A stretch of DNA of 64,000 nucleotides from a bacterium (GTDB taxonomy: Bacteria; Patescibacteriota; Minisyncoccia; Phycocordibacterales; UBA918), in NCBI GenBank assembly GCA_027487145.1, contig JAIYEC010000070.1:4477-68476 (forward strand), in the 5' to 3' direction. The translations under genes were made by a program, and so were the position numbers. The notes under the pieces are model-generated. The model was not told the DNA's origin. It worked only from the letters and a program-made list of their open reading frames with translations, and searched no databases. Shown here piece by piece: positions 6,360-62,456 of the stretch (position 1 is the stretch's first letter; each line of letters begins with the position of its first letter).

Positions 6360-6803
6360 CTAGAAAGGGATGTCCTCGGGGTTAATTTCTTCTTCTGGAT
6401 AGTCAGGAAGCGCCGGAGCTCGGTTATCATCCTGTGGGTTGTTCCCAACCGGAGCAGGACTTGGAGCGCCACCGCCACTACTCTTTGGACCAAATTGTAC
6501 TCGATCAGCTACGATTTCAGTGCGGTACTGCTTCTGGCCATCCTTGTCCCAACTACGAGTCTGGAGACGACCTTCTACGTATACACCGCTTCCCTTAGTA
6601 AGCCACTTGGCTGACGTTTCAGCCTGCTTTCCGAATACCACGACATTGTGATAATCAGTGTTCTCCTGTCGCTTGCCATCACGGTCTACATAGACACGAT
6701 TAGTTGCAATTGAAAGTGAACATACTTGCATCCCGCTTGGGAGGGCTTTCATTTCGGGATCACGGGTGAGGTTCCCGTACACCATAGCTTTATTGAGGTA
6801 CAT
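6360..6803 (-). CDS. ssb: single-stranded DNA-binding protein
   Basis: OB-fold (NKAMVYGNLTRDPE..HNVVVFGKQAE), a Gly/Pro-rich linker, and an acidic C-terminal tail ending in DIPF. Confidence 0.9.
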   Translation of the reverse strand: MYLNKAMVYGNLTRDPEMKALPSGMQVCSLSIATNRVYVDRDGKRQENTDYHNVVVFGKQAETSAKWLTKGSGVYVEGRLQTRSWDKDGQKQYRTEIVADRVQFGPKSSGGGAPSPAPVGNNPQDDNRAPALPDYPEEEINPEDIPF

Positions 6804-47895: not shown

Positions 47896-47970
47896 TGGCG
47901 GCTATAGTATAATGGTTAATGCATCGGTTTGTGGTACCGAGAATTCGGGTTCAATTCCCGGTAGCCGCCC
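47896..47970 (+). tRNA. tRNA-His (anticodon GTG), with encoded G-1 pairing to C73
   Basis: Folded manually. A 7-bp acceptor stem (gcggcta/tagccgc) with an extra G-1:C73 pair, D arm gtat/atgc with a GG loop, anticodon stem tcggt/accga with loop ttGTGgt, T arm tcggg-ttcaatt-cccgg, and a trailing CC. Confidence 0.85.
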
Positions 47971-48045
47971 CTTTTAGAGCTAGCACGAGAAGGCTACAAA
48001 AATGAACCTCAATTGGGGTTCATTTTTGTAGCCTCTGGTATGCAA

Positions 48046-48963
48046 TTAAACAAGATTTAGAATCTTCGCAACCAGATATTCTGTATCAGAAAAAAATTCA
48101 GATATTTTATTATTCTGGTCTTTATAACCATTTTGCGGGAAAAAACCAAAGTGAATTAACCTATTGCGAATTTTTTCTATCTTTTCTGCGTTTTCTTCTT
48201 CCTTACCATCAAGAAAGTATTCATTTCTGACAAATCTATATTTTTGCTCCACGCTCATTTTTGATATCTCTTTATTATTCATCAATAAAGAATGGTGTAG
48301 TGAAAAAATATGTTCCCAAATTGACCAAGATAGAATAAAAGCGGATTCTGTACACTGGCGTTTTTGCGCCTGAGCAAAAATTAAAAGAAATGCGCCTTTA
48401 CTATATTTCTTTTGCCATACCTCATCCTTAATAGTGGAACATACTTTATTTACCGCGATTTCTAGCCCCTGATCAAATCTGAGCCATTCAAATGCACTAA
48501 GCCCATTTATCTCGACCTCAGAAATGATTTCTCGTGTTTGATTATTTATAGCTTTTCCTACAGGTAGAACAAATCGACCAAAATTACCCCTATGTTGCCT
48601 TGGATCTTCAATAATCTGTATTCTACTTTCAGCGTCACGCCATGTCTTTGCAATAATATTTCGCCCAGTAAGGAGTGATAGAACTAGTAGTATATCTAAA
48701 AATTCTCTAGGTTTTTGGGAACCTACTTCTATACTATTCCACGGCAAAATTGCAACTTTTTGTCTTGAGGGCAACAACGCCAAGGCAGTCACCCGATGAC
48801 TGCCTTGATTGACCTCAAATGAAGTGCTGTTGTACGAGTGCGACAATTCTTTTAATATTTTTTTGTAATCAGGAGCCTGCTTAAAACAATACTCACCTAC
48901 ATTCAGCTCTAAAACATTATCTGGAAACTCAAGGTTGTATATTTCAATCTGAACCCTATCCAT
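48046..48963 (-). CDS. hypothetical protein (island cargo, 305 aa)
   Basis: AT-rich ORF with no recognisable motif. It is the last gene of a three-gene operon. Confidence 0.5.
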   Translation of the reverse strand: MDRVQIEIYNLEFPDNVLELNVGEYCFKQAPDYKKILKELSHSYNSTSFEVNQGSHRVTALALLPSRQKVAILPWNSIEVGSQKPREFLDILLVLSLLTGRNIIAKTWRDAESRIQIIEDPRQHRGNFGRFVLPVGKAINNQTREIISEVEINGLSAFEWLRFDQGLEIAVNKVCSTIKDEVWQKKYSKGAFLLIFAQAQKRQCTESAFILSWSIWEHIFSLHHSLLMNNKEISKMSVEQKYRFVRNEYFLDGKEEENAEKIEKIRNRLIHFGFFPQNGYKDQNNKISEFFSDTEYLVAKILNLV

Positions 48964-49282
48964 TTCCTAATTTTAAGTTGTGTATTGAGAAAAGTAAAAA
49001 TAACGCAGTAACAAAATCAATTATTATCCAAACATCACGAGTAAGGAATACAGGAATAAAAGGGTTAAACAATACTGCTATCACACCAAAGAGCCATACC
49101 CAACCCTCTTGCTTATCTTTGTACGCAAGGTAGGCAACGTATGTAGTCGAAGCAAATACAACGAAACGAAGAATTGTAAAAAATCCATATTGCCAACCAT
49201 CAATCAAAGCTAATAAAAGAAAAACTGATGCAATAAACAGTGCGGTATTTTTCTTTTTATTTTGACCAAAGACCATGTACAA
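48956..49282 (-). CDS. hypothetical small membrane protein (island cargo, 3 TM)
   Basis: 108 aa. It overlaps the downstream gene by 8 nt. Confidence 0.45.
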   Translation of the reverse strand: MYMVFGQNKKKNTALFIASVFLLLALIDGWQYGFFTILRFVVFASTTYVAYLAYKDKQEGWVWLFGVIAVLFNPFIPVFLTRDVWIIIDFVTALFLLFSIHNLKLGNG

Positions 49283-49288
49283 AATAAG

Positions 49289-50476
49289 TTAATTCTTTGG
49301 TGTCAGAAATCTGAAACTTACTCCAGCGGCTTTATAAACATGATCTAGACCTTCTGGTGTAAAGTCGCCTCCAAACAATCTCATTGAACCATCATTATCC
49401 ATACACACTTGCATAAACATAAAATTGTCTTCAATTTTATACATAAAATGCCAAGTACCGACAAGTTTATTCCTATGTTCTTTTAAGAACACTAATATTT
49501 GCGACTGAGTGAAACAGAGATTGTTTAAATCTTTATCTATAGATTTAAACATCTTGTATATCGTTGAATCATTAATAAGATAATGTACTTGTGCTTCAGC
49601 AATGTTTGTGTTTTTTGAAACAAAGTCTGATTTATTTATATCTTCTTCTTCAAAAAAGATAATTTTAAAACTTTCTTTTGAGTTTGCAATATTTATTTTT
49701 CCGTCTGTAGGTGGTATTTGAAAAACAGTATCTGTTTTTATAAGTACATTATTGGGTATATTTTTGATGTCATTGTCTTTTTCCCAAATGATTTTTGATT
49801 CAGTAGAAATATCAGAACTATTAAGTTCTTTAATTTTATACTCTTCATCTTCTTGTTTGCCATAACTTTTTTGAACCTCCTTTGAAATTTTTTCAAAATC
49901 AACATCTTCCTCAATATCTGGTAGATATCCGAAATCGTATTCAATTTTTTCATCTGAACAATCCTGGGAGCCTGTGCCTGCAAGATAATCTTCTTTTGAA
50001 ATTTCTTTAGAGCCGAATAGCTTCTCAAATTTCTCTCGGATAAGAATACCTCCTGTTGGATCTGATTTTCCTATCGACTCTATTTTGGCAATATACTTTT
50101 CATAGCTTGGATAACCATTAAATAGCCAAAAACCAAGTTCTTGAATATTTTGAACCATGTCTGGTGCATTCTGATTAGCTAAATCAATATATAAGTAATA
50201 TGCAGCCTTAATGTATTTTTTAGGGTATGGCAATAATGACATTGGTACTAATGTCATTAATGGATGTAGGGGTAGATGCTCGTTAAATAATTTCAACTGG
50301 AATGAATTAAAATCTTTAAACACCTTCTCTGCGAGGGCATAGTTTGGTTCTTTATATTCTGGGACTGATTCTTTAATCAGATTATAAGCTTTTATTAAAT
50401 CTGAATTATCATACTGATTCACTACCTCCCTATGTGAAATTTTATTTTTAAATAAGCCAAACATATTTTTTATCAT
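49289..50476 (-). CDS. hypothetical protein (island cargo, 395 aa)
   Basis: Very AT-rich with no recognisable motif. It is the first gene of the operon. Confidence 0.5.
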   Translation of the reverse strand: MIKNMFGLFKNKISHREVVNQYDNSDLIKAYNLIKESVPEYKEPNYALAEKVFKDFNSFQLKLFNEHLPLHPLMTLVPMSLLPYPKKYIKAAYYLYIDLANQNAPDMVQNIQELGFWLFNGYPSYEKYIAKIESIGKSDPTGGILIREKFEKLFGSKEISKEDYLAGTGSQDCSDEKIEYDFGYLPDIEEDVDFEKISKEVQKSYGKQEDEEYKIKELNSSDISTESKIIWEKDNDIKNIPNNVLIKTDTVFQIPPTDGKINIANSKESFKIIFFEEEDINKSDFVSKNTNIAEAQVHYLINDSTIYKMFKSIDKDLNNLCFTQSQILVFLKEHRNKLVGTWHFMYKIEDNFMFMQVCMDNDGSMRLFGGDFTPEGLDHVYKAAGVSFRFLTPKN

Positions 50477-50555
50477 AGTCTATTGTAGCCAACAATATCA
50501 CAAATCGTAATATCTGCCTTAAACTAGGCGTTGCCTTTACCAGGCTACTTCTAGA

Positions 50556-51908
50556 CTATCTTAAACTTACCTTTCTATCAGTCAGAACAATATGACTCTT
50601 TAAACACCTTATAAATTCACGCTTTTCCTCAACGCTTCCCTCTTGGAGAATAAACTTGGCATAGTTTCGAATATCTATATCCTTTACTACCGCTGAGTTC
50701 TTGTTTCCAAGTAACATATGCTCAAACTTCTTCACTCGCTTTAATTCTTCGGTAATCTTTTCTCTAAGAGGAACAATCTGCATATCTAAATCATCGACTA
50801 AGCTTTGCAGTTGTGGTATCAAGTCGTCTTCGTTAATGAGAGCATTGGGACAGAAGTGGTCTTTGATACGTGTACATTTGTAATAGACGTAGCGGTGGGT
50901 ATTGCCGTTTTTTTGGTGTTTAAATTTCTCATCAGCGGTAATACCCGAGCCACAAAGTCCACATGTCATGATTTTGGTAAAAGCGAACTCTTTTTGAGCG
51001 TACTTTGGTTCTAGAACCTGACTCTTAATCTTTTCTTGCACTAAATCAAATAATTCTTTCGTGATAATTGGTTGATGTGAGCCGTTGTACCAAACACCTG
51101 AACCTTTTGGAAATTCAAAACGACCGTAATAAAAATGGGCTTCTAGAATGCGGTAGATGTTACCAAGACTGAGATGCATATTATTTTCAGTCCTGAAGTT
51201 CACTTCTTCTTTTAACCACTAATGTAGCTTTCGACCACTCCAACCATCATACGCAACCTTCTCAAACATCTGTTTAATGATTGGTGCTCGTTCTGGGTCG
51301 ATTACTGATTCACACTTCTGATCCATTCGTTTGAACTTGGTGTAGCCAGTCAGTGGTCGGCACGGCCACAATCCCATCTCCACTCTTGCCCGCAGTCCTC
51401 GCTTCACGTTTTGACTCTTATTATCGTTTTCAAGTTTGGCTTGCGAACACAGAATCATGAGTAGGAACTTTTCGTTCGGAGAATTAGAGAACGTCTGTCC
51501 ATACGTTTGAATATGAACTAACTTCTTCTGGTCCATCAGGTCTACTAGCGAACCGAGGTCACCCGCATTACGACTTAGTCGGTCTGGTGCCCAGGCCATA
51601 ATTCCATCGTATGTACCGTTTCTAATCTCTTCTAGCAATTCTTTAAAGACAGGTCGCTGTCCTGAATCTTTAGCGGAATGAGCTTCACGTTTAATGGTGA
51701 CTATGTTTAGATTTTGCCGTTCAGCAATCGCCATCATTTCTTTGACCTGTGAATCAATCGATAGTGCTTGCATTTCATCAGACTCAGTACTCTTTCTGGC
51801 GTATAAGCAGTAGCGAATTCTCGCTCCACTAATTGATACACCGTCTTGTACTCTGCCCACAACATTAGTTTCCATCCTTAATTGATGACAGAACGAAAAA
51901 ACCTGCAT
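50556..51908 (-). pseudogene. large serine recombinase (resolvase catalytic domain, recombinase domain and zinc ribbon) interrupted by one in-frame TAG at 51219-51221
   Basis: The N-terminal part has YARKSTESDEMQALSIDSQ. The C-terminal part has the recombinase domain and a Cys4 ribbon. The two ORFs are in the same frame, separated only by TAG plus 5 codons (..GWSGRKLH*WLKEEVNFR..). Confidence 0.7.
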
Positions 51909-52153
51909 AGCTATGCAAGCTAGCGGAAACGTTACCTATTCGCTCGGTAAAAGGCTACTACTTTCAAAATAACTAATATTTATAGGCCTATAATGCTGTG
52001 CACGACGTGTGAATAGTCTTTACTTTCGCCTTTTATCGTGTTAACATTATTGTGGCTGGTTGCTCAGCAATGAGCTAGTCCACCTCTCGACGATGTGGAT
52101 ATCCGCGAGGAAACTGGCTTCAAAAACACCTCTCTTCGGAGGGGTCTTTTTGT

Positions 52154-53053
52154 TTATTGGATGGGACAATTTTGGTGAAAATTCCAATTTACCTTATTTA
52201 CGTCAGGAACACAGGTCAGACCACATCCACGGACATTTCCCTGAGCATTGGCATGAAAGTTACATCTGATTTTCTCAAAATAGTCGTAAGTCTCCATTTG
52301 CTTCTTACCATCAGCAGATACCCTGTCACCACACCATTCCCTTCCATACACGGTAAACTGTCTATGAATGTTGTAGGCACAAATATCCGCTATCTGGAGA
52401 AAATTTTCGTCGCATGACTTCTTAAAATCCACATCCACTATATTTTCATAGCTCTCAGAAAATTTAGTCTCCATACCAAGATTGTTGGTAAAGATACCCC
52501 GAATCTTGTTGTGGGCACCTTTTTCAAGAGAGAGTGAAGACTCAAACTGATCAAATGTGACCACGTTGATGTTGCCAGCATAATTTATCCGTTCCAACAT
52601 TATCTGTGTCGTCTTCAAAAAAGGATTTCCATCTCCGGTTGCTCGCTTCGCATCGCCGTAATACCTCTTGTCAAAAACAACACCAATTACCTTCATCTTG
52701 TCAGCATTCTGAGCAATAAGATCATGCAGATCGTCACCAAACTTATTAAGTTGCTCAACGGTAATACCGTAGGGGTCTAAGTAGTGTTTCTTCCTTTTGT
52801 CTGGTATACGCAACCAAGTCGACTTTATTTCCACATCCGCAGTACCGAAGCAAGCAATCTTTAACGTCCTAACTGCCGCGTCAATAATCCCAATATCTGA
52901 TTGTTTTATACGCACACCACAAAGTACGAAATAGTTTTCCCGCCAAAACTGCTCATTACCTTCAAATGCTGGTGGATTGTCTTTAAAATCCCTTGAGTAT
53001 GGGGCATTGTAGTCTTTCATTCCACTATCATCTACGAAGACTTTATAAAGCAT
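52154..53053 (-). CDS. DUF3800-like protein
   Basis: The N-terminal MLYKVFVDDSG resembles the Y-x-F-x-D-E-S-G start of DUF3800 proteins, which are often found on mobile elements. Confidence 0.4.
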   Translation of the reverse strand: MLYKVFVDDSGMKDYNAPYSRDFKDNPPAFEGNEQFWRENYFVLCGVRIKQSDIGIIDAAVRTLKIACFGTADVEIKSTWLRIPDKRKKHYLDPYGITVEQLNKFGDDLHDLIAQNADKMKVIGVVFDKRYYGDAKRATGDGNPFLKTTQIMLERINYAGNINVVTFDQFESSLSLEKGAHNKIRGIFTNNLGMETKFSESYENIVDVDFKKSCDENFLQIADICAYNIHRQFTVYGREWCGDRVSADGKKQMETYDYFEKIRCNFHANAQGNVRGCGLTCVPDVNKVNWNFHQNCPIQ

Positions 53054-53100
53054 TGGACTATTTTATCAGTTTGTGGTCTTAAGTAAAACAAACCCCTTCA

Positions 53101-53470
53101 GCCAACCAATCCAGGTACATCTCTTCAAATTGGTTCGACTGAGGGCATTACTGTACATTTTAGAGCTAGCCTGAGAGTGACATAAACCTTGTACGAGGTG
53201 AATATTATTAAAAGAGTGACAGTTCCTTGTCACTATGTGACACACGTGAATAAGTGTCACTTTTGTCACTTTTTGCCTATGCACGAGAAGGGTTCTTTTG
53301 AATAAAAATCACTAGCTAGAAAAGCCTTACAGGGTAACGAACCAAACAAGTCGTATCTGCTGAAGGCGCCCTGGAGCAAAGTCCCCCTTGGGGGACTTTT
53401 GCGTAAGGGCGGCCAAGCGAGTGAACTGCTTCACTGCGTCCGGGAATCGAAAGCCGCAGTCATGTTGCGG
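53101..53470. repeat. copy 1 of a conserved hairpin-rich non-coding element, split by a 220-nt insertion that carries the GTGACA array
   Basis: 53101-53148 matches 55611-55661, and 53369-53459 matches 55668-55761. The common core is ccctggagcaaagtccccc..gggggacttttgcgtaaggg, a second hairpin, then gtccg(g/a)gaatcgaaagccg. Confidence 0.55.
53174..53269. promoter_or_regulatory. array of five GTGACA/TGTCAC half-sites forming two inverted repeats plus extra half-sites, about 120-215 bp upstream of the DUF3800 gene
   Basis: gtgacagttccttgtcac and gtgacacacgtgaataagtgtcac, plus agagtgacat and ttttgtcac, read directly from the sequence. Confidence 0.4.
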
Positions 53471-53975
53471 AGCAACAGACGAGGCGGGGTCGAGAGTACT
53501 TAGTAAAATCAGAGCGAAGCGAATAATTCTACTTAGTAACTCGTGACCGATTCCTCCCGGTAGCCGCACTAACGAAAATTTATTTAAAGGGTCCCTATAT
53601 ATGTAGGGATTTTTTAGTTCCAGTCTGATATACTTTTTTTGTATGAGTATATATTTAAAGATGCTTCTTTTGATAGCATCCATATATATTTTTATAGGGA
53701 TAGTATTCGCAACAAAATGGGCAATTACTTATGACCCTGCAGTAAACTCATTTCCTAATAATCCAGTCTCATTTCTTTTTAATATAATATTTTGGTTTAA
53801 TGAATTTTAATTTCATCAAAGCTGGGAATATGTATACTCACATCACCTAACCTCTCAAACACAGTTCTAACATCCTTTACGACGTCGCCCATTTTAAGGA
53901 GCTTTATTTAACAACATATTTTAAAGGTATTTTTTAGTACCTACTGTCCCTAGTAGAACCTGCTATAATTTTACT

Positions 53976-54317
53976 ATGCTGATAGTAACATTCTCACATA
54001 TAGTTAATGCACTCGTAGCGGGAGGTATAGGTATATTACTCCTCCTGAATCTTCCTAGTATGACGGCAGTGTATGGAGAAGCAACTCCTGCCCGATCTAT
54101 CCTGACCAGTGTCTATCTTGCAATTGCAGCAGGAAGTTTATTTGCACTTATCTTTCCCTTACACAGTATCGCAATCGCAAAAGTGCTTTTTCCATTACAG
54201 ATACTATATAAATTTTCAACCATACTAACCGTGGGGACAATTACCCATCCCGTTGTATTAAGTAATCTATTTATTAGCGTATTACACGCCGTCTCTTTAT
54301 TTATGATTTTTAAGTAG
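53976..54317 (+). CDS. hypothetical membrane protein
   Basis: 113 aa with 3-4 hydrophobic helices. Confidence 0.4.
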   Translation: MLIVTFSHIVNALVAGGIGILLLLNLPSMTAVYGEATPARSILTSVYLAIAAGSLFALIFPLHSIAIAKVLFPLQILYKFSTILTVGTITHPVVLSNLFISVLHAVSLFMIFK

Positions 54318-54327
54318 AGCTTCGTTT

Positions 54328-54750
54328 CTACTTTAAGACACCTTTTATTCTTAAATTTCTTGCATACCAAAGCAATCCGGCCGCCACCGCCACTACAAAC
54401 GTAAGGATGATAACTTGTGGTGCACCAAGAGCGGCGAACACTCCTTCGGTTATATCACCTATATAAAGAATAATGTACGCTATGAGTGAAATTGCGAAAA
54501 CTGATATAGCAACGCGGGATTTTAAAGCTAACAACACACTCCCAATAATTCCTCCAAAGACACCAACAGCAAATGCAATGGTCATCCATACAGGGTAATT
54601 CAACATTACCATTGCCTGTTCGGCAGTTAGGCCTTGAGTCATTAGCGACGTTTCTGTTGCGTTTAGTGAAGCAAGAAACTGTACCACTCCAAAGATATTC
54701 CACGCCAACCCCAATCCAACGACTGACCAAAATACTGTTTTTGATTGCAT
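54328..54750 (-). CDS. hypothetical membrane protein
   Basis: 140 aa with 4 TM helices, downstream of the SRPBCC gene. Confidence 0.45.
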   Translation of the reverse strand: MQSKTVFWSVVGLGLAWNIFGVVQFLASLNATETSLMTQGLTAEQAMVMLNYPVWMTIAFAVGVFGGIIGSVLLALKSRVAISVFAISLIAYIILYIGDITEGVFAALGAPQVIILTFVVAVAAGLLWYARNLRIKGVLK

Positions 54751-54751
54751 A

Positions 54752-55177
54752 TTATTTATTAATTAATTGTGTAAGCTTAGCAAATGCTGATTCCCACCCC
54801 ATTGCATGCATTTCTCGCAAAAACGGCTGATTGAGATTCTCTTGTATCAAAGTTAATTCTGATCCAGCTTCAATCAGTCTTATAGTGACGATAATCCGAG
54901 ACGAGTCCATTGGCAAATCATGAATACGCCAGGTAAATACCAACGTATGTTCTGGTTCGACTTTCTCAAATACACCGGTTGTTGTATGTATCACTCCACT
55001 TGGCTCTATAACATCAATATCATATTCAGCCCCTTCAACGACTTCGTACTTCTTTAGATGTGCCTCACTCTCTCCTGGTCCAAACCATTTGATAAATTGA
55101 GTCGGGTCGGTCCACGCTTGCCACACTTCGCTTGGTGAGGCACTGAATGTTTTTATAATTGTAATAGTGTTTTCCAT
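54752..55177 (-). CDS. SRPBCC / AHSA1-domain protein
   Basis: The pattern of about 140 aa (..FSASPSEVWQAWTDPTQFIKWFGP..) is typical of the Aha1-like START/Bet v1 fold, which commonly pairs with ArsR regulators. Confidence 0.65.
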   Translation of the reverse strand: MENTITIIKTFSASPSEVWQAWTDPTQFIKWFGPGESEAHLKKYEVVEGAEYDIDVIEPSGVIHTTTGVFEKVEPEHTLVFTWRIHDLPMDSSRIIVTIRLIEAGSELTLIQENLNQPFLREMHAMGWESAFAKLTQLINK

Positions 55178-55186
55178 GATAAAAAT

Positions 55187-55543
55187 TTATTTTTTACTAA
55201 GTAGTTTATCCAGCGCATCAAAATTAGTATTCCAAAACTTGGTGTATTTTTGCACCCACGCCTGAAGTACTTTGAGTGAATGCGGTTCAAGACTCACAAT
55301 TACGTTGCGACTTTCTTTTCTCCGTTTAATTAACTTTGCCTCCTCGAGTACCCGCAAATGTTTAGATAGTGCTGGAGCAGACATCTGATAGTACGGTGAC
55401 AGTACCTCAACTGAAAGCGGACCACTACTTACTCGCTCTATAATCGAACGACGAGTTGGATCAGCTAGGGCTTTAAAAATTGCATCCATTGATGATTGAT
55501 TAACCATACGGTTAAATGTATCATGTAGATACTTAACCGTCAA
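55187..55543 (-). CDS. ArsR/SmtB-family transcriptional regulator
   Basis: Winged HTH LADPTRRSIIERVSSGPLSVEVLSPYYQMSAPALSKHLRVLEEAKLI. Confidence 0.8.
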   Translation of the reverse strand: MTVKYLHDTFNRMVNQSSMDAIFKALADPTRRSIIERVSSGPLSVEVLSPYYQMSAPALSKHLRVLEEAKLIKRRKESRNVIVSLEPHSLKVLQAWVQKYTKFWNTNFDALDKLLSKK

Positions 55544-55610
55544 GTTAAGTATGCTGATGTGACATATCCCTCCTATGTGAACATCTCAAGCAAAACAAAA
55601 CCCTTGCTTC

Positions 55611-55765
55611 ACTCAACCATTCAAGACACAGCTCTTCCAATTGGTTCCACCCGAGGGTTGGCAGCCGCCCTGGAGCAAAGTCCCCCTTTCGGGGGACTTT
55701 TGCGTAAGGGCGCCTAGGGAAGCAGACTGTTTTGCTTCCGTCCGAGAATCGAAAGCCGGAGCGAT
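55611..55765. repeat. copy 2 of the conserved hairpin-rich non-coding element (contiguous form)
   Basis: See copy 1. It lies between the stop of the 747-aa surface protein gene and the start of arsR. Confidence 0.55.
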
Positions 55766-55899
55766 ATTTATGAGCGAGCAGGTGAGAAATGGGATGGGAC
55801 CCGTTTCCCAAACTTTTTTCACTCTACGACCTCGCGTAAACGAAAAAACACCAGGCTATTTGTCCGGTGTTTTTACATTTCTTTATATAAGTATAGTGA

Positions 55900-58143
55900 C
55901 TACCACCACAATCCTGGCAAACCAGCGGCTTTCATCTGAGCCCGGGTAATTGCTCCGAAGTAACCAGAAGCTGGGACAATACCGTATTTTAGTTGGTATT
56001 CAATCAGCGCTTGTTCGGTGTAATTGATGAAATCACCAGTCGCAGTTACTCGAGCGAGTTCTCGGGCTTTTGGTCCAGTGTTATGATTAATCAATAACAC
56101 CTGCAAGGCTTGAACGTCTTCCCCGCTTAGGCCACGGTACAAATCACGAACAATCAGACCAGTCACATCCACCACCGGTTGAACCGCTTGATCAAGAATC
56201 GTAATCACCACAGCCGGTAGCTCGATTCCCGCCATACGCGCTGCTTCAAAGACAGCCCTGTTTTGATTAATAAATTCTCGGAGTGAAGCAGGTACTGTTA
56301 TATTCTGACTTATCTCAGTATCCGCTTTGCTATCTGTTGGATTAGTTGTTCGACGAGTACCTCCTCCGCCACTGCGTCGAGGCTCATCTTCATCGACAGA
56401 GGTAAAGTTCTGCCAACGGAAAAATGGATAGCCTCCATTTTCGCTTGGGTTAATACCCCAGATAGTAGTGAAGTTCCAGCCGGCACCAGTGTAGGTACTA
56501 CTCATTTTCATTCCTGGGGTTGCAATACCACTTCCAGCTCCAGAAGCGGATTGATTACTAGCTACACTATCCCAAAATGACGCAGTGATAGTATTTTCAT
56601 CTGACTCTCCAATCAGACCACCTACAAACGTATTTCCTGTCACTAAACCGCGCGCGTATACATTTATATATTGTGAATTTGATACTTGTCCACTAAAGCC
56701 ACCAACATAATTAGTTCCGGTTACCGTCCCTGCCGCGTAGCCATCAGTAATGGTCATGCCTCCGCTACTGCCAAGGAACCCTCCGACCTGGTCGCTACCT
56801 GTTACATCTCCAGTGGCAAACACTTGACTCATGGTCGAGCCAGGTCCTTCACAGCCATCATTACCAGTAAAACCTCCTGCACTGGCACCTGTTGCAGTCA
56901 CATCACCAGTTGCGTAAGCACGTACGATTTCTGCACCACACCCACTGCTCCCGAACATACCGCCGACAGATTCAGTACCTGTCACATCGCCGGTTGCAAA
57001 GCTATTCAAGACATAACCACTTGAAAACCGTCCAGCAAAGCCTCCAATTGAAAATTCCGTTCCACTCACATCACCAGTAGCTGAACTAGTTGCAACACTA
57101 GCATCACTAGCTGAGCCAATGAGTCCTCCGACTTCATTGAGACCCTCTATCACTCCGGAAGCAGCAGCGTAACTGACACTACTTTCAGTCAGACTCCCTA
57201 CCAACCCTGCGACTCTACGATTTCCGGTTACGTCACTGGTACTGGTAGCATACGAAACAGTGGCATTATTCTCGACGGTACCGGCAATTCCACCAATCCG
57301 ATCTCCACGCTTCCCGTTATCATTTGTGCCATCAATTTCACCGGTTGAAACAACTCGAGTCAAAGAACCCCGCTCCATTCGTCCTACGATACCACCAATA
57401 TCTTCACCTCCATCAATAAATGCTGTCGATGTTGCATAAGTAATGGTTGTATCAAGAGCACTTCCGACGACACCACCAATAATGATTCCGCTTCCTTTAA
57501 CAGCACCACCAACAACAACATTTGAAATTGTAGTTCCGTTAGTATAGCCAGCGACTCCTCCGCCATATTCCCCCCAACGGGTCCAGATACAAGCGGCTGG
57601 CTGACATACATCTGGGGTACTCATGACATCAATTCCAAGATATGTAACACCAACATTTACTTGAACATTTTCAATGATACCTCCTACTGCATATCCAACT
57701 AAACCACCAACATATCGATACCCCTTGATTGCTACATTGGTGAGACGGATATTCTCCAGTGTCGCGTCTTCTGTATACCCAAACAATCCAACATGCTGTT
57801 CGTCATCAACTCCTTCTCCTGGCAAATCGTCTGCTCGTTCAATAAATAAGTCTCGAATTTCAAAGTTCTGCCCATCAAGTGAACCAATAAATTTTGCTGT
57901 GCTGGTACCAACTGGAGTAAAGCCCTTTCCTCCGTTCCACAAAGTGGTAACACCACATTCGATATGATTCTCTAGTCGATAGTGGGCATCAAGATCATCA
58001 GCCATTTCTCGTAATCCATCACAATCTGTAATTTGGTATGGATCATTTATTGTTCCAGCCCCAGCTCCCGTAAACGCTTCAGCGGCAGTTCCATAAGTTG
58101 CAAAAATAAAAACACTGATTGCAACAAGTTTAGGTAAATTCAT
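55900..58143 (-). CDS. large secreted surface protein with Gly-rich (GLUG-like) repeats and a C-terminal putative peptidoglycan-binding domain
   Basis: Signal peptide, then many repeats of ..VGG[LFI][IAV]G.., and a C-terminal segment like PG_binding_1 (LSGEDVQALQVLLINHN..YTEQALIEYQLKYGI). Confidence 0.5.
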   Translation of the reverse strand: MNLPKLVAISVFIFATYGTAAEAFTGAGAGTINDPYQITDCDGLREMADDLDAHYRLENHIECGVTTLWNGGKGFTPVGTSTAKFIGSLDGQNFEIRDLFIERADDLPGEGVDDEQHVGLFGYTEDATLENIRLTNVAIKGYRYVGGLVGYAVGGIIENVQVNVGVTYLGIDVMSTPDVCQPAACIWTRWGEYGGGVAGYTNGTTISNVVVGGAVKGSGIIIGGVVGSALDTTITYATSTAFIDGGEDIGGIVGRMERGSLTRVVSTGEIDGTNDNGKRGDRIGGIAGTVENNATVSYATSTSDVTGNRRVAGLVGSLTESSVSYAAASGVIEGLNEVGGLIGSASDASVATSSATGDVSGTEFSIGGFAGRFSSGYVLNSFATGDVTGTESVGGMFGSSGCGAEIVRAYATGDVTATGASAGGFTGNDGCEGPGSTMSQVFATGDVTGSDQVGGFLGSSGGMTITDGYAAGTVTGTNYVGGFSGQVSNSQYINVYARGLVTGNTFVGGLIGESDENTITASFWDSVASNQSASGAGSGIATPGMKMSSTYTGAGWNFTTIWGINPSENGGYPFFRWQNFTSVDEDEPRRSGGGGTRRTTNPTDSKADTEISQNITVPASLREFINQNRAVFEAARMAGIELPAVVITILDQAVQPVVDVTGLIVRDLYRGLSGEDVQALQVLLINHNTGPKARELARVTATGDFINYTEQALIEYQLKYGIVPASGYFGAITRAQMKAAGLPGLWW

Positions 58144-62135: not shown

Positions 62136-62173
62136 AAAACAAAAACCGCACAATGTGCGGTTTTTGTTTTTAG

Positions 62174-62192
62174 TGTCCAGGACTGGAGTTGG
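62174..62192. repeat. 19-nt direct copy of the tRNA-Leu 3' end (gtgtccaggactggagttg)
   Basis: Identical to 62372-62390. It lies 180 bp from the tRNA 3' end. Confidence 0.7.
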
Positions 62193-62324
62193 TCACGAAT
62201 CACTAAGTAGATTTTTCGTCTTCGACTCCCAATCTCCTAAGTGTTCTCGACCCCGTCTCGCTAGCTCACAAGCTCACATCGCTCCGACTTTCAACTCCAG
62301 ACGAACGACGCGCAGGCGTCCTTC

Positions 62325-62377
62325 TTCCTGGACACAATTAAAAAAACCGGCATACGCCGGCTTTTTTAATTGTGTCC
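62325..62377. repeat. near-perfect inverted repeat with arms of about 25 bp (cctggacacaattaaaaaaaccggc..gccggcttttttaattgtgtccagg) whose right arm is the tRNA-Leu 3' end; it also works as a bidirectional terminator
   Basis: Read directly from the sequence, with one mismatch in the arms. Confidence 0.65.
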
Positions 62378-62456
62378 AGGACTGGAGTTGAACCAGCATG
62401 CCCGTGAAGGCGCTACCACCTCAAGGTAGTGCGTCTACCAATTTCGCCACCTGGAC
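62373..62456 (-). tRNA. tRNA-Leu (anticodon GAG), type II with a long variable arm
   Basis: Folded manually on the minus strand. Acceptor gtccagg/cctggac, D arm gcg-aaattggtaga-cgc, anticodon stem ctacc/ggtag with loop ttGAGgt, variable hairpin gcc..ggc, and T arm gctgg-ttcaact-ccagt. Confidence 0.75.

Follow-up and report, generated by a model that had tools for sequence, protein, structure and literature searches.

Elements and prophages moved by large serine recombinases (LSRs) include those of the phiC31, Bxb1, A118, SCCmec Ccr and TnpX types, and the characterised serine integrases mostly target open reading frames or intergenic sites; it is tyrosine integrases that classically insert at tRNA genes. 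Since serine integrases that use simple sites are prized tools for genome engineering, an LSR family that lands on tRNA termini would be of practical interest. Patescibacteria have tiny genomes, and to our knowledge little is known about gene exchange among them. The island described here is similar to the LSR elements in that it encodes a recombinase with Resolvase, Recombinase and zinc-ribbon domains and a catalytic Ser motif, has short att homology (5 nt here) with the recombinase gene near one end, and carries variable cargo with no long target duplication. Similar to the tRNA islands of tyrosine integrases (P4-like and ICE types, and the sublocation classes of Williams 2002), it lies directly downstream of a tRNA gene that remains intact, deviates in composition, varies among strains and carries accessory cargo.

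Within the window, by which we mean the whole 64,000-nt (64 kb) stretch of DNA analysed, we find a strain-specific integrative island of 5.4 kb at ~47972-53370, which falls inside the range of 5.2 to 5.6 kb proposed in a first-pass annotation of this sequence. Our preferred reading, which we hold to be probable, is that this is one copy of an LSR-moved Patescibacteria island family, integrated at the end of tRNA-His and now probably fixed. Its left junction is the exact 3' end of the tRNA; the right junction, at 53367-53371, is defined by a second island copy that another organism (L139) carries. The island and its borders comprise the following features:

47898-47971, plus strand: tRNA-His(GTG), by ARAGORN and Rfam
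47966-47970, plus strand: left CGCCC junction microhomology, putative attL crossover region, the same pentamer being at 53367-53371
47972-48034, plus strand: left-end module, the 22-mer TTTTAGAGCTAGCACGAGAAGG followed by a bidirectional terminator-like hairpin, conserved in L010 and L139
48046-48963, minus strand: p305 cargo gene (ORF), with a C-terminal RNRLIH (Rx4H, HEPN-like) motif, GC 0.352
48956-49282, minus strand: DUF6804 small membrane protein, cargo (Pfam PF20619, E 2.7e-26), GC 0.333
49289-50476, minus strand: p395 cargo gene (ORF), the most AT-rich of the genes, GC 0.301
50556-51908, minus strand: LSR, full length but stop-interrupted (Pfam, PHROG)
52154-53053, minus strand: DUF3800 protein, variable cargo (Pfam PF12686, E 2.1e-10), GC 0.404
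53158-53176, plus strand: second TTTTAGAGCTAGC copy, inside the island, a 17/19 match to 47972-47990
53171-53281, no strand assigned: array of six GTGACA/TGTCAC hexamers, overlapping minus-strand promoter-like sites upstream of DUF3800
53202-53369, plus strand: right-end module, with CACGAGAAGG at 53282-53291 and ending ...GTCGTATCTGCTGAAGGCGC, from homology to L139
53367-53371, plus strand: right CGCCC copy, putative attR crossover region, 5401 bp from the left copy

Comparison of the tRNA-His locus among relatives, as the first-pass annotation had advised, upholds its claim of a horizontally acquired serine-recombinase island directly past the tRNA-His 3' end. The genes on either side assign the window to Patescibacteria. 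Relatives share the block RNR-MscL-YibE/F-tRNA-His, and all of them diverge directly past the tRNA: homology with L002, L003, L004 and L138 breaks off at the 3' end of tRNA-His, such that homology among five tRNA-His loci places the island against that end, and many metagenome contigs break just past it. L138, a near-empty comparator, has nothing of window 47971-53939; 73 nt past its tRNA-His comes a promoter region equal to window 53940-53972, and then a 113aa/140aa/AHSA1/ArsR block at 85.5% identity. The same ends and LSR occur elsewhere, in the homologous island of L139, whose LSR is 95% identical in protein and 86% in DNA. The left-end module of L139 matches window 47948-48034 at 83%, and the right-end module is 83% identical to L139 6157-5989, the homology ending at 53369/53370. 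The L139 cargo differs, consisting of ADP_ribosyl_GH and NOV_C genes, a 217-aa gene and, at the position of DUF3800, an unrelated 155-aa gene. At its left end the L139 copy also has a decayed 24-nt tRNA-His 3' fragment, and either the mobile unit reaches into the tRNA T-arm or this copy moved with flanking host DNA. The island family thus has two conserved end modules that enclose exchangeable cargo and an LSR gene oriented towards the tRNA. Relatives of the LSR are arranged alike, with the cargo between the tRNA 3' end and an LSR directed at that tRNA, at tRNA-Ser in L097 and L137 and at tRNA-His in L003.

The LSR (~440 aa, with a probable start METNVV at 51875) retains all three domains of its class, the resolvase catalytic domain (Resolvase PF00239, E 1e-22), the recombinase domain (Recombinase PF07508, E 3.1e-7) and the zinc beta-ribbon (Zn_ribbon_recom PF13408, E 1.4e-7), and it matches PHROG 95 integrase. 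The catalytic YARKST motif is kept, with LYARKST-ES aligning with the same motif in L097, L137 and L003. The reading frame is not intact: an in-frame TAG at 51219-51221, aligned with a His in L097 and L137, splits the gene into two ORFs. The gene is uninterrupted in its homologs, of which there are at least 8000, the best 120 being 74-95% identical and nearly all 431-450 aa long. Since the gene is broken its activity cannot be assumed, and the nonsense codon suggests that the island is now probably immobile and fixed, unless a paralogue acts in trans. One could argue from this pseudogene, from the finding of no excision evidence and from the nearest comparators being different species that the region was never mobile, but is an ancestral variable segment lost by the relatives, its AT-richness reflecting gene function. 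We regard this as highly improbable and as largely refuted already by L139, considering that the same end modules and LSR occur with other cargo at a tRNA-Ser/MgtE locus in another organism, that in four lineages the boundary falls precisely on the end of the tRNA, and that the LSR family has so many (at least 8000) close members.

As first annotated, the island has five genes, with the recombinase counted as one gene split by the TAG, and all are on the minus strand. We found no match for p305 in Pfam, NCBIfam, PHROG or PDB and none for p395 in any library searched. PADLOC likewise assigned no known defence family to the cargo, its sole match being a weak one of p305 to the Cas13a HEPN region (E 1.2e-3). 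The cargo, an AT-rich three-gene operon plus DUF3800, probably represents accessory or defence-type genes, a suggestion to be taken lightly. The sharp drop in composition noted in the first-pass annotation is clear, as the island holds the lowest-GC 2.4 kb of the 64 kb, beginning at 48001 with a GC of 0.328 (median 0.446; 5th percentile 0.393).

How the island arrived is suggested by its junctions. A flanking direct repeat from the tRNA 3' end, as attL and attR, was not found; the two junctions share CGCCC only (5 nt). The attP would be the two island ends joined (...GAAGGCGCCC to CTTTTAGAGC...), and the attB the last bases of tRNA-His with its trailer hairpin (...GGTAGCCGCCC to TGGAGCAAAG...). 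The last bases of tRNA-His would form the B arm of the integration site, and sequence comparison at the junctions reveals that the P arm GAAGGCGCC resembles the B arm GTAGCCGCC. The LSR would have recombined attP with attB, with the crossover likely inside the shared CGCCC, judging from this 5-nt microhomology only. Such an event would have left tRNA-His intact and displaced its native terminator and cognate tRNA-mimic element 5.4 kb downstream, and the LSR would later have gained the nonsense codon that it carries today. Our searches turned up neither an excised circle nor an attP junction nor a truly isogenic empty site, and the proposed attP pattern had no match in the viral contigs searched. 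The following features lie beyond the right junction:

53376-53402, plus strand: native tRNA-His trailer hairpin, GCAAAGTCCCCC-TT-GGGGGACTTTTGC, outside the island
53403-53568, plus strand: element A, a His-type, tRNA-3'-end-mimicking structured element (nhmmer E 1.3e-30), with core GGGGTCGAGAGTACTTAG at 53486-53503, 3' arm at 53532-53548 and a tail CGATTCCTCCCGGTAGCCGC that contains the 12-mer CCCGGTAGCCGC
55645-55811, plus strand: copy B, a decayed tRNA-His 3' remnant (GGTTCCACCCGAGGGTTGGCAGCCGCCC) joined directly to the same trailer hairpin and a partial element
62171-62340, minus strand: Leu-type copy of the element, directly downstream of tRNA-Leu(GAG) at 62372-62456

When the island is removed in silico, tRNA-His, terminator and element become colinear with the intact loci L098 (74% identity) and L032 (72%), and the element core comes to lie 115 nt past the tRNA, the same spacing as in L098. 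The trailer hairpin sits where L098 and L032 have their post-tRNA hairpin, and copy B holds a duplicate of it. Copy B is an uninterrupted paralogue of the reconstructed attB (55656-55680), and keeps the junction in which GCCGCCC is followed directly by TGGAGCAAAG.

The first-pass annotation had instead proposed three repeats as att duplications bounding the island. All of the features it noted are present, with coordinates off by 0-2 nt, and the repeats are indeed above chance. The 13-mer TTTTAGAGCTAGC occurs at 47972-47984 and at 53158-53170 (not 53160-53172), with no further match in 64 kb even when 1 mismatch is allowed (0.11 expected; 0/100 shuffles gave two); CACGAGAAGG occurs only at 47984-47993 and, as noted, at 53282-53291 (0.09 expected); and the 12-mer CCCGGTAGCCGC only at 47957-47968 and 53556-53567 (not 53555-53566; 0.05 expected). 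The hairpin beside the tRNA is also real, but is found at 47991-48034 where 47993-48040 had been given; its arms (47991-48012 and 48013-48034) are 22 nt each and 95% complementary, and an A-run and a T-run flank them. What did not survive is the role given to the repeats: TTTTAGAGCTAGCACGAGAAGG and the second CACGAGAAGG belong to conserved end modules also present in L139, the left one being shared with L010 as well and matching its L139 counterpart at 83% identity, and the 12-nt tRNA copy is found 186 nt beyond the right junction, in the tail of a separate tRNA-linked structured element.

An island bounded by the two TTTTAGAGCTAGC copies (~47985-53170, 5.19 kb), these being the attL/attR common core with crossover in the palindromic GCTAGC, would account for a 13-mer pair that is unique in 64 kb. 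The 22-mer TTTTAGAGCTAGCACGAGAAGG is a pseudo-palindrome centred on GCTAGC, both copies of the 13-mer lie within such sites, GCTAGCACGA is also found 3' of tRNA-Ser in L097 and L139 at 7-9 nt past the tRNA, and a 1.5-kb MgtE module of L139 lies between 13-nt direct repeats (GCTAGCACGAGAC). We nonetheless find these limits unlikely, given that the L139 homology runs ~200 nt to the right of the second copy, to 53369, that the 8-nt core of this copy (GAGCTAGC) is missing from the aligned L139 sequence and is thus not conserved there, and that deleting 47985-53170 fails to restore the tRNA-hairpin-element order while deleting 47972-53370 does. The second TTTTAGAGCTAGC copy at 53158 is statistically non-random, and our preferred reading leaves it without an account. 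Still less credible is a classical tRNA-integrating island of ~5.6 kb with the 12-mer at 53556-53567 as its attR duplication, a model we consider very improbable. The exact 12-mer is unique in the window and tRNA 3'-end direct repeats are a hallmark of tyrosine-integrase islands, but here no tyrosine integrase is present, the L139 homology stops 186 nt before the 12-mer, and the LSR islands at tRNA-Ser in L137 and L097 have no second tRNA-end copy. Moreover, the 12-mer is an element tail, and ~35 loci, including tRNA-Leu of the window, carry such tRNA copies without an island.

The dense operator-like array of the first-pass annotation is likewise present, with 3 GTGACA and 3 TGTCAC in 53171-53285 (42 in the whole window). 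The right module has this array, then CACGAGAAGG, and ends in ...CTGCTGAAGGCGC, and L139, L072 and L133 also have the motif GTGTCACTTTTGTCACTTTTT with (C)ACGAGA after it. It is possible, if rather doubtful, that the island is a composite in which an LSR backbone (ends, LSR and DUF3800) received the AT-rich three-gene operon later, and in which 53158-53370 may be what is left of a previous tandem island, its 22-mer split by a 111-nt GTGACA element. GC is two-tiered within the island (0.30-0.35 versus 0.40-0.41, the LSR gene itself having 0.408), and the AT-rich operon may therefore have been acquired later. The left 22-mer is found again on the right in two pieces, 13 nt and 10 nt in their original order with 111 nt between them, the ends persist while cargo differs among the window, L139, L097, L137 and L010, and copy A and copy B are direct repeats flanking the ArsR block. 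However, the GTGACA array and CACGAGAAGG are conserved as a unit in L139, L072 and L133 and are therefore a regular part of the right end rather than a one-off insertion, and, as attL is not normally an integration target of LSRs, islands would have had to accrete in tandem by some other route. We note that this account overlaps with our preferred reading and differs from it in the number of events only.

Correcting the att sites exposed a widespread structured element, absent from Rfam, that lies downstream of most kinds of tRNA and of tmRNA and copies their 3' ends. It spans ~150-200 nt, is found downstream of tRNA and tmRNA genes in >120 metagenomic contigs, sometimes in tandem arrays, and copies the 3' end (last 19 bases) of each neighbour, with 19 tRNA identities seen. 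At ~35 loci the element has a 13-21-nt copy of the preceding tRNA, 75-135 nt away, with no island between; the tail of the Leu-type copy, which is in its normal place, is 19/19 identical to the tRNA-Leu 3' end. Inserted DNA also lies between a tRNA and its cognate element at two further loci, and a fourth locus points to a similar split. In a covariation test of the helices 92.7% of cells were paired versus 77.5% in shuffles (0/500), with a covariation score of 0.393 versus 0.135 (0/500 shuffles) and slid controls at 31-40%, and compensatory changes in element A therefore exceed those of the controls. Element A and copy B had no Rfam match at gathering thresholds, nor did 51800-56100 at E <= 10 or 12 further element loci at E <= 1. 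On inspection the sequences did not fit a hammerhead, a group I intron, H/ACA or a K-turn. We tentatively propose, as one possible reading, that the element is an undescribed structured-RNA class tied to tRNA/tmRNA genes in Patescibacteria, each copy reproducing the last ~19 nt of its neighbour masked by a complementary 5' arm; that the interval between tRNA and element is a dedicated landing pad of an abundant LSR island family using many tRNA ends; and that tRNA end and element, as a pair, have a functional link with integration or with the protection of tRNA genes.

Taken together the locus offers a concrete, testable model with an abundant LSR family, defined ends, predicted attP and attB at a tRNA end, and swappable cargo. 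Compared with the known LSR elements it differs in its target, the exact tRNA 3' terminus, in its Patescibacteria host, in the nonsense codon of this copy, and in a P arm whose end resembles the 3' strand of the acceptor stem of the targeted tRNA (tRNA-His in the window; Trp-like in L072); no RDF was identified. Unlike the tRNA islands of tyrosine integrases, it has no such integrase and made no 15-60-nt tRNA direct repeat, the nearby tRNA-end copy being part of a separate resident element. Similar to defence-island and mobile-element cargo hotspots, the family swaps cargo between conserved ends, with the PADLOC candidate PDC-M36A in L097, NERD, NOV_C or ADP-ribosylglycohydrolase genes in others, and p305 with its Rx4H motif in the window; it differs from them in that no cargo gene of the window matches a known defence family above threshold, and a defence role can therefore only be inferred. 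Finally, if the element is an RNA it points to an unfamiliar side of tRNA gene biology in Patescibacteria. Like the tRNA-like modules of tmRNA, mascRNA/MALAT1, bacterial YrlA and viral TLS, element A reuses acceptor/T-arm sequence at the end of an RNA and keeps company with genes of the tRNA type, among them tmRNA, and it might plausibly make use of RNase P, RNase Z or the CCA-adding enzyme. In contrast to these modules, its T-loop bases are engaged in pairing instead of a T-loop fold, it belongs to no Rfam family and forms tandem arrays, it copies the particular neighbouring tRNA across 19 identities, and a conserved three-way-junction core (GAAA, P3 and GGGGUCGAGARYACUUAG/CUUAGURAYUCGUGACC) replaces the rest.

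The island begins exactly where a first-pass annotation had put its left border, at the tRNA-His 3' end, and the features listed there were all found in the window with a coordinate error of at most 2 nt. These include a sharp drop in base composition (GC is lowest in the 2.4 kb from 48001, at 0.328 vs a window median of 0.446), five minus-strand genes that occupy 48046-53053, and a dense array consisting of six GTGACA/TGTCAC hexamers within 53171-53285. The three repeats proposed as att duplications are also real, each having no occurrence beyond its pair in the 64 kb (expected counts 0.05-0.11, no shuffle reaching two). The right border, however, coincides with none of them and lies at 53367-53371.

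Features of the tRNA-His locus and copies of the structured element (slash, junction point)
Window 47898-47971: tRNA-His(GTG)
Window 47957-47968 and 53556-53567: CCCGGTAGCCGC pair
Window 47966-47970: CGCCC of the left junction, GTAGCCG-CCCC/TTTTAGAGC
Window 47972-47984 and 53158-53170: TTTTAGAGCTAGC pair
Window 47984-47993 and 53282-53291: CACGAGAAGG pair
Window 47991-48034: hairpin 3' of tRNA-His, 22+22 nt, perfect-type
Window 53367-53371: CGCCC of the right junction, GAAGGCG-CCC/TGGAGCAAAG
Window 53403-53568, + strand: element A, His-type, whose tail contains the 12-mer of the first-pass annotation
Window 62171-62340, - strand: Leu-type copy, tail 19/19 vs the tRNA-Leu 3' end
Contig L002 3804-3946, - strand, and 6578-6724, + strand: element copies (the tRNA-Val of L002 is also an example of a tRNA-end copy)

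Among the matches listed of at least 8000 homologs, the best match to the large serine recombinase (LSR) of the island is P0241 on contig L139, which is 95% identical in protein and whose gene has 86% DNA identity. This contig also carries a left-end module composed of TTTTAGAGCTAGCcCGAGAAGG and the hairpin (83% vs window 47948-48034), preceded by a decayed 24-nt tRNA-His 3' fragment, and a right-end module (83% vs window 53202-53369) where homology stops exactly after ...GTCGTATCTGCTGAAGGCGC. Its neighbourhood is tRNA-Ser(gct)/MgtE and its cargo an ADP-ribosylglycohydrolase, NOV_C, a 217-aa gene and a 155-aa gene, vs p305/DUF6804/p395 and DUF3800 in the window. That the ends and LSR are common to both while cargo and site differ argues for a mobile unit with conserved ends and exchangeable cargo. 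On the minus strand of L139, GCTAGCACGAGAC (13 nt) occurs at both 12199 and 10684 as a direct repeat on either side of a 1.5-kb MgtE module, which itself lies between the LSR island and tRNA-Ser(gct); the inner copy of the repeat adjoins the tRNA-His fragment, and this island looks as if it had moved from a tRNA-His site along with flanking DNA.

Two of the proposed att repeats can be placed relative to these ends. The 22-mer at 47972-47993 is part of the conserved left end and forms a pseudo-palindrome centred on GCTAGC (CCTTTTAGA-GCTAGC-ACGAGAAGG), a motif that we infer to be a putative recombinase-binding arm; GCTAGCACGA is also present 3' of tRNA-Ser in L097 and L139, and in L036 and L135 it is TTAGAGCTAGCAC that is found 3' of tRNA-like ends. 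The CACGAGAAGG copy on the right is part of the conserved right end and comes directly after the TGTCAC repeats; L139, L072 and L133 show the same GTGTCACTTTTGTCACTTTTT-(C)ACGAGA arrangement. The second TTTTAGAGCTAGC (53158) is internal to the island and not conserved in L139. The 12-nt tRNA-His copy turned out to belong to another entity, element A (about 53403-53568), whose tail it forms. We dropped TTTAGAGCTAGC as a promoter or CRISPR-repeat look-alike, as the motif moves with the island ends.

The two CGCCC copies at the junctions are 5401 bp apart. Deleting the island in silico gives tRNA-His, trailer hairpin and element, an arrangement colinear with that of L098 (74% identity) and L032 (72%), where the tRNA-His locus is intact, and places the element core 115 nt from the tRNA-His end, the same as in L098. 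Moreover, the uninterrupted junction GGCAGCCGCCC/TGGAGCAAAG is independently kept at copy B, a decayed paralogue site (55645-55811). With a crossover at CGCCC, the 5.4-kb unit would have CTGCTGAAGGCGCCCCTTTTAGAGCTAGC as its predicted circle junction (attP), and the predicted empty site (attB) would read GGTAGCCGCCCTGGAGCAAAGTCC. Copy B itself, on the + strand, combines what is left of a decayed tRNA-His 3' end with the trailer hairpin, which matches 53367-53426 at 58/60 positions, and with an incomplete and diverged element. Its position is exactly where synteny with contig L138 ends (55657), upstream of ArsR, such that copies A and B form a direct repeat on either side of the ArsR block; in L022 the element is likewise paired with ArsR-AHSA1.

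The comparison with relatives that had been proposed as a check revealed a near-empty locus in L138 (GCA_041740175.1). This contig has in common with the window the tRNA-His, a 33-nt promoter region (53940-53972) and a 113aa/140aa/AHSA1/ArsR block (53974-55657, 85.5% DNA identity), yet its tRNA-His is only 73 nt from the promoter region and window 47971-53939 is wholly absent. The 140-aa membrane protein of this block has homologs 60-70% identical that are named from Proteobacteria and Bacteroidota, which suggests that the ArsR-AHSA1-membrane block may have been acquired horizontally too; the single close relative in Patescibacteria shows 87% identity. An isolated 39-nt match (window 53853-53891 vs L002 7538-7576, 90% identity) lies in otherwise unrelated intergenic regions, with DUF378 upstream of the L002 site.

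More generally, the tRNA-His 3' site is a recombination hotspot. The RNR-MscL-YibE/F-tRNA-His block is kept in every relative fetched and synteny returns at NUDIX-tRNA-Leu-L19 (window 60761 onwards), but gene content between the two blocks differs in every lineage and DNA homology ends at the last tRNA-His base. L002 and L003 encode identical YibE/F and have the same DNA up to GCCGCCCC, then diverge; in the differing part L003 has an intact 551-aa serine recombinase. Many metagenome contigs terminate at this tRNA-His; seven independent contigs of close relatives (within L007-L015) stop at or in tRNA-His, 90-270 nt upstream of YibE/F, an assembly signature of strain-level heterogeneity at the hotspot. 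The flanking YibE/F homologs are from Patescibacteria (Kaiserbacteria, Pacebacteria, Parcubacteria). Exact-sequence look-ups of the window YibE/F, MscL, AHSA1 and P0121 gave no matching record, and scanning GTDB genomes with YibE/F yielded a single Kaiserbacteria locus, non-syntenic and lacking a tRNA.

The window LSR has Resolvase, Recombinase and Zn-ribbon domains, keeps the catalytic YARKST motif and aligns end to end with its homologs, nearly all of the best 120 of at least 8000 being 431-450 aa. It is interrupted by a single in-frame TAG (51219-51221, minus strand) where relatives have His (two base changes from CAY, one from CAG), and is probably a recent pseudogene, unless the assembly is wrong at the TAG or the codon is read through. 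LSR relatives show the same layout of tRNA 3' end, cargo and LSR aimed at the tRNA, namely L097 (63% identity, tRNA-Ser gct, with a match to the PADLOC candidate PDC-M36A as cargo), the IMG/VR contig L137 (55%, tRNA-Ser tga) and L003 (33%, tRNA-His). No second tRNA-end copy was found within the DNA available for L097 and L137, which fits serine-recombinase chemistry. A viral origin was rejected: one IMG/VR contig has a related LSR beside tRNA-Ser, the L016 match to the core motif of the structured element is a chance coding match, and the attP junction pattern was not found in viral contigs. Adjoining the two related LSR genes, in opposite orientations, is a hairpin motif, AAGTGCCGGCTTATG(T/A)(A/G)GCCGTTT with arms of the CGCGAATA...TATTCGCG type (L097 25-75 and L137 9360-9410, both +), that may be another small structured element. 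Within the 245-nt LSR-DUF3800 spacer (51909-52153) there is a strong hairpin resembling a terminator (52128-52145, +), and Rfam gives a weak istR-like match (E 0.6).

Among the cargo, p305, DUF6804 and p395 form a compact AT-rich operon, and DUF6804 and DUF3800 are the only Pfam matches; PADLOC, PHROGs, NCBIfam and PDB sequence searches gave nothing usable beyond a weak PADLOC HEPN-region match of p305. The C-terminal RNRLIH (Rx4H) motif of p305, together with what sister islands carry (NERD in L036, PDC-M36A in L097, NOV_C in L139), points to a possible defence or toxin role; a relationship between p305 and the Rx4H-bearing 295-aa protein of L072 was not detectable.

Element A belongs to a widespread class of structured elements of ~150-200 nt, found in the window, in L002 and at >120 further loci on the same strand as, and 3' of, tRNA/tmRNA genes. 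The tail at the 3' end of each repeats the final 13-21 nt of the tRNA it follows, and the arms on the 5' side can pair with that tail. The core GGGGTCGAGARYACTTAG of the element has matches in at least 120 metagenomic contigs, and a profile search gave 160 copies at 124 loci. A same-strand tRNA or tmRNA lies at most 400 nt upstream in 108/130 judgeable copies, covering 19 amino-acid identities and 7/8 tmRNAs. At ~35 loci the 19 nt past the CTCGTGAC motif hold an exact 13-21-nt copy of the tRNA 3' end, from T-loop C56. The order is P1 and P2 5' arms, hairpin A, GAAA, P3, hairpin B, a long conserved hairpin C and the tail, around a conserved three-way junction. Paired cells amount to 92.7% vs 77.5% in shuffles (0/500), covariation scores 0.393 vs 0.135 (0/500), and slid controls are 31-40% paired. 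A G·U pair is invariant (88/88), which favours the element being read from the tRNA strand. Between the window and L002 the Leu copy keeps 89-93% identity, vs about 80% for coding DNA. Four tandem core units lie 3' of the tmRNA gene in L097 (13154-14230), and tandem or nested units are also present in L114, L111, L121, L083 and L098.

Rfam has no family for element A, copy B or further element loci, and we found no account of the element in the literature. By sequence inspection, a hammerhead was rejected (the element has GAAA and a three-way junction but lacks CUGAUGA), as were an H/ACA-like guide, without a pseudouridylation pocket, and a K-turn, not conserved in hairpin B; a tmRNA or RNase P fragment lacks a sequence match. 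For a group I intron the R and S boxes are loosely resembled, but the 5' arm shows no pairing to a 5' exon, and the group I introns reported from Patescibacteria tRNA genes sit in the anticodon loop (PMC13011429); this reading was dropped as well. Our best guess is a tRNA-gene-linked RNA whose acceptor/T-arm look-alike helix might serve in processing or be recognised by a protein; the element could also be a miniature mobile element that duplicates its target.

The tRNA-to-element distance is usually ~50 nt and is 5.46 kb in the window. A second case of cargo between a tRNA and its element is L042 (4289-5581), where a single 255-aa gene, on the opposite strand and without a recombinase, lies between tRNA-Gly and its cognate element, whose tail has ATTCTTCTCAC in common with the tRNA; in L139 ~6 kb including the LSR island separates tRNA-Ser from a Ser-type element. 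In L072 a TGTCAC/CGAGA right-end module, itself followed by tRNA-Trp-end-like sequence, is 166 nt upstream of a Trp-type element, and no tRNA was found within 2.2 kb. Taken together, these separations make the tRNA-element interval a recurrent insertion point.

Genomic islands have already been reported in Patescibacteria, without tRNA or recombinase analysis (PMC12455944), and we found no description in the literature of LSR islands at Patescibacteria tRNA genes. The tRNA-end-mimicking element family is the more surprising outcome; the island is an LSR integrative island, a known kind of element, in a decayed state and with an unusual choice of target, the tRNA 3' terminus, in a little explored host phylum.
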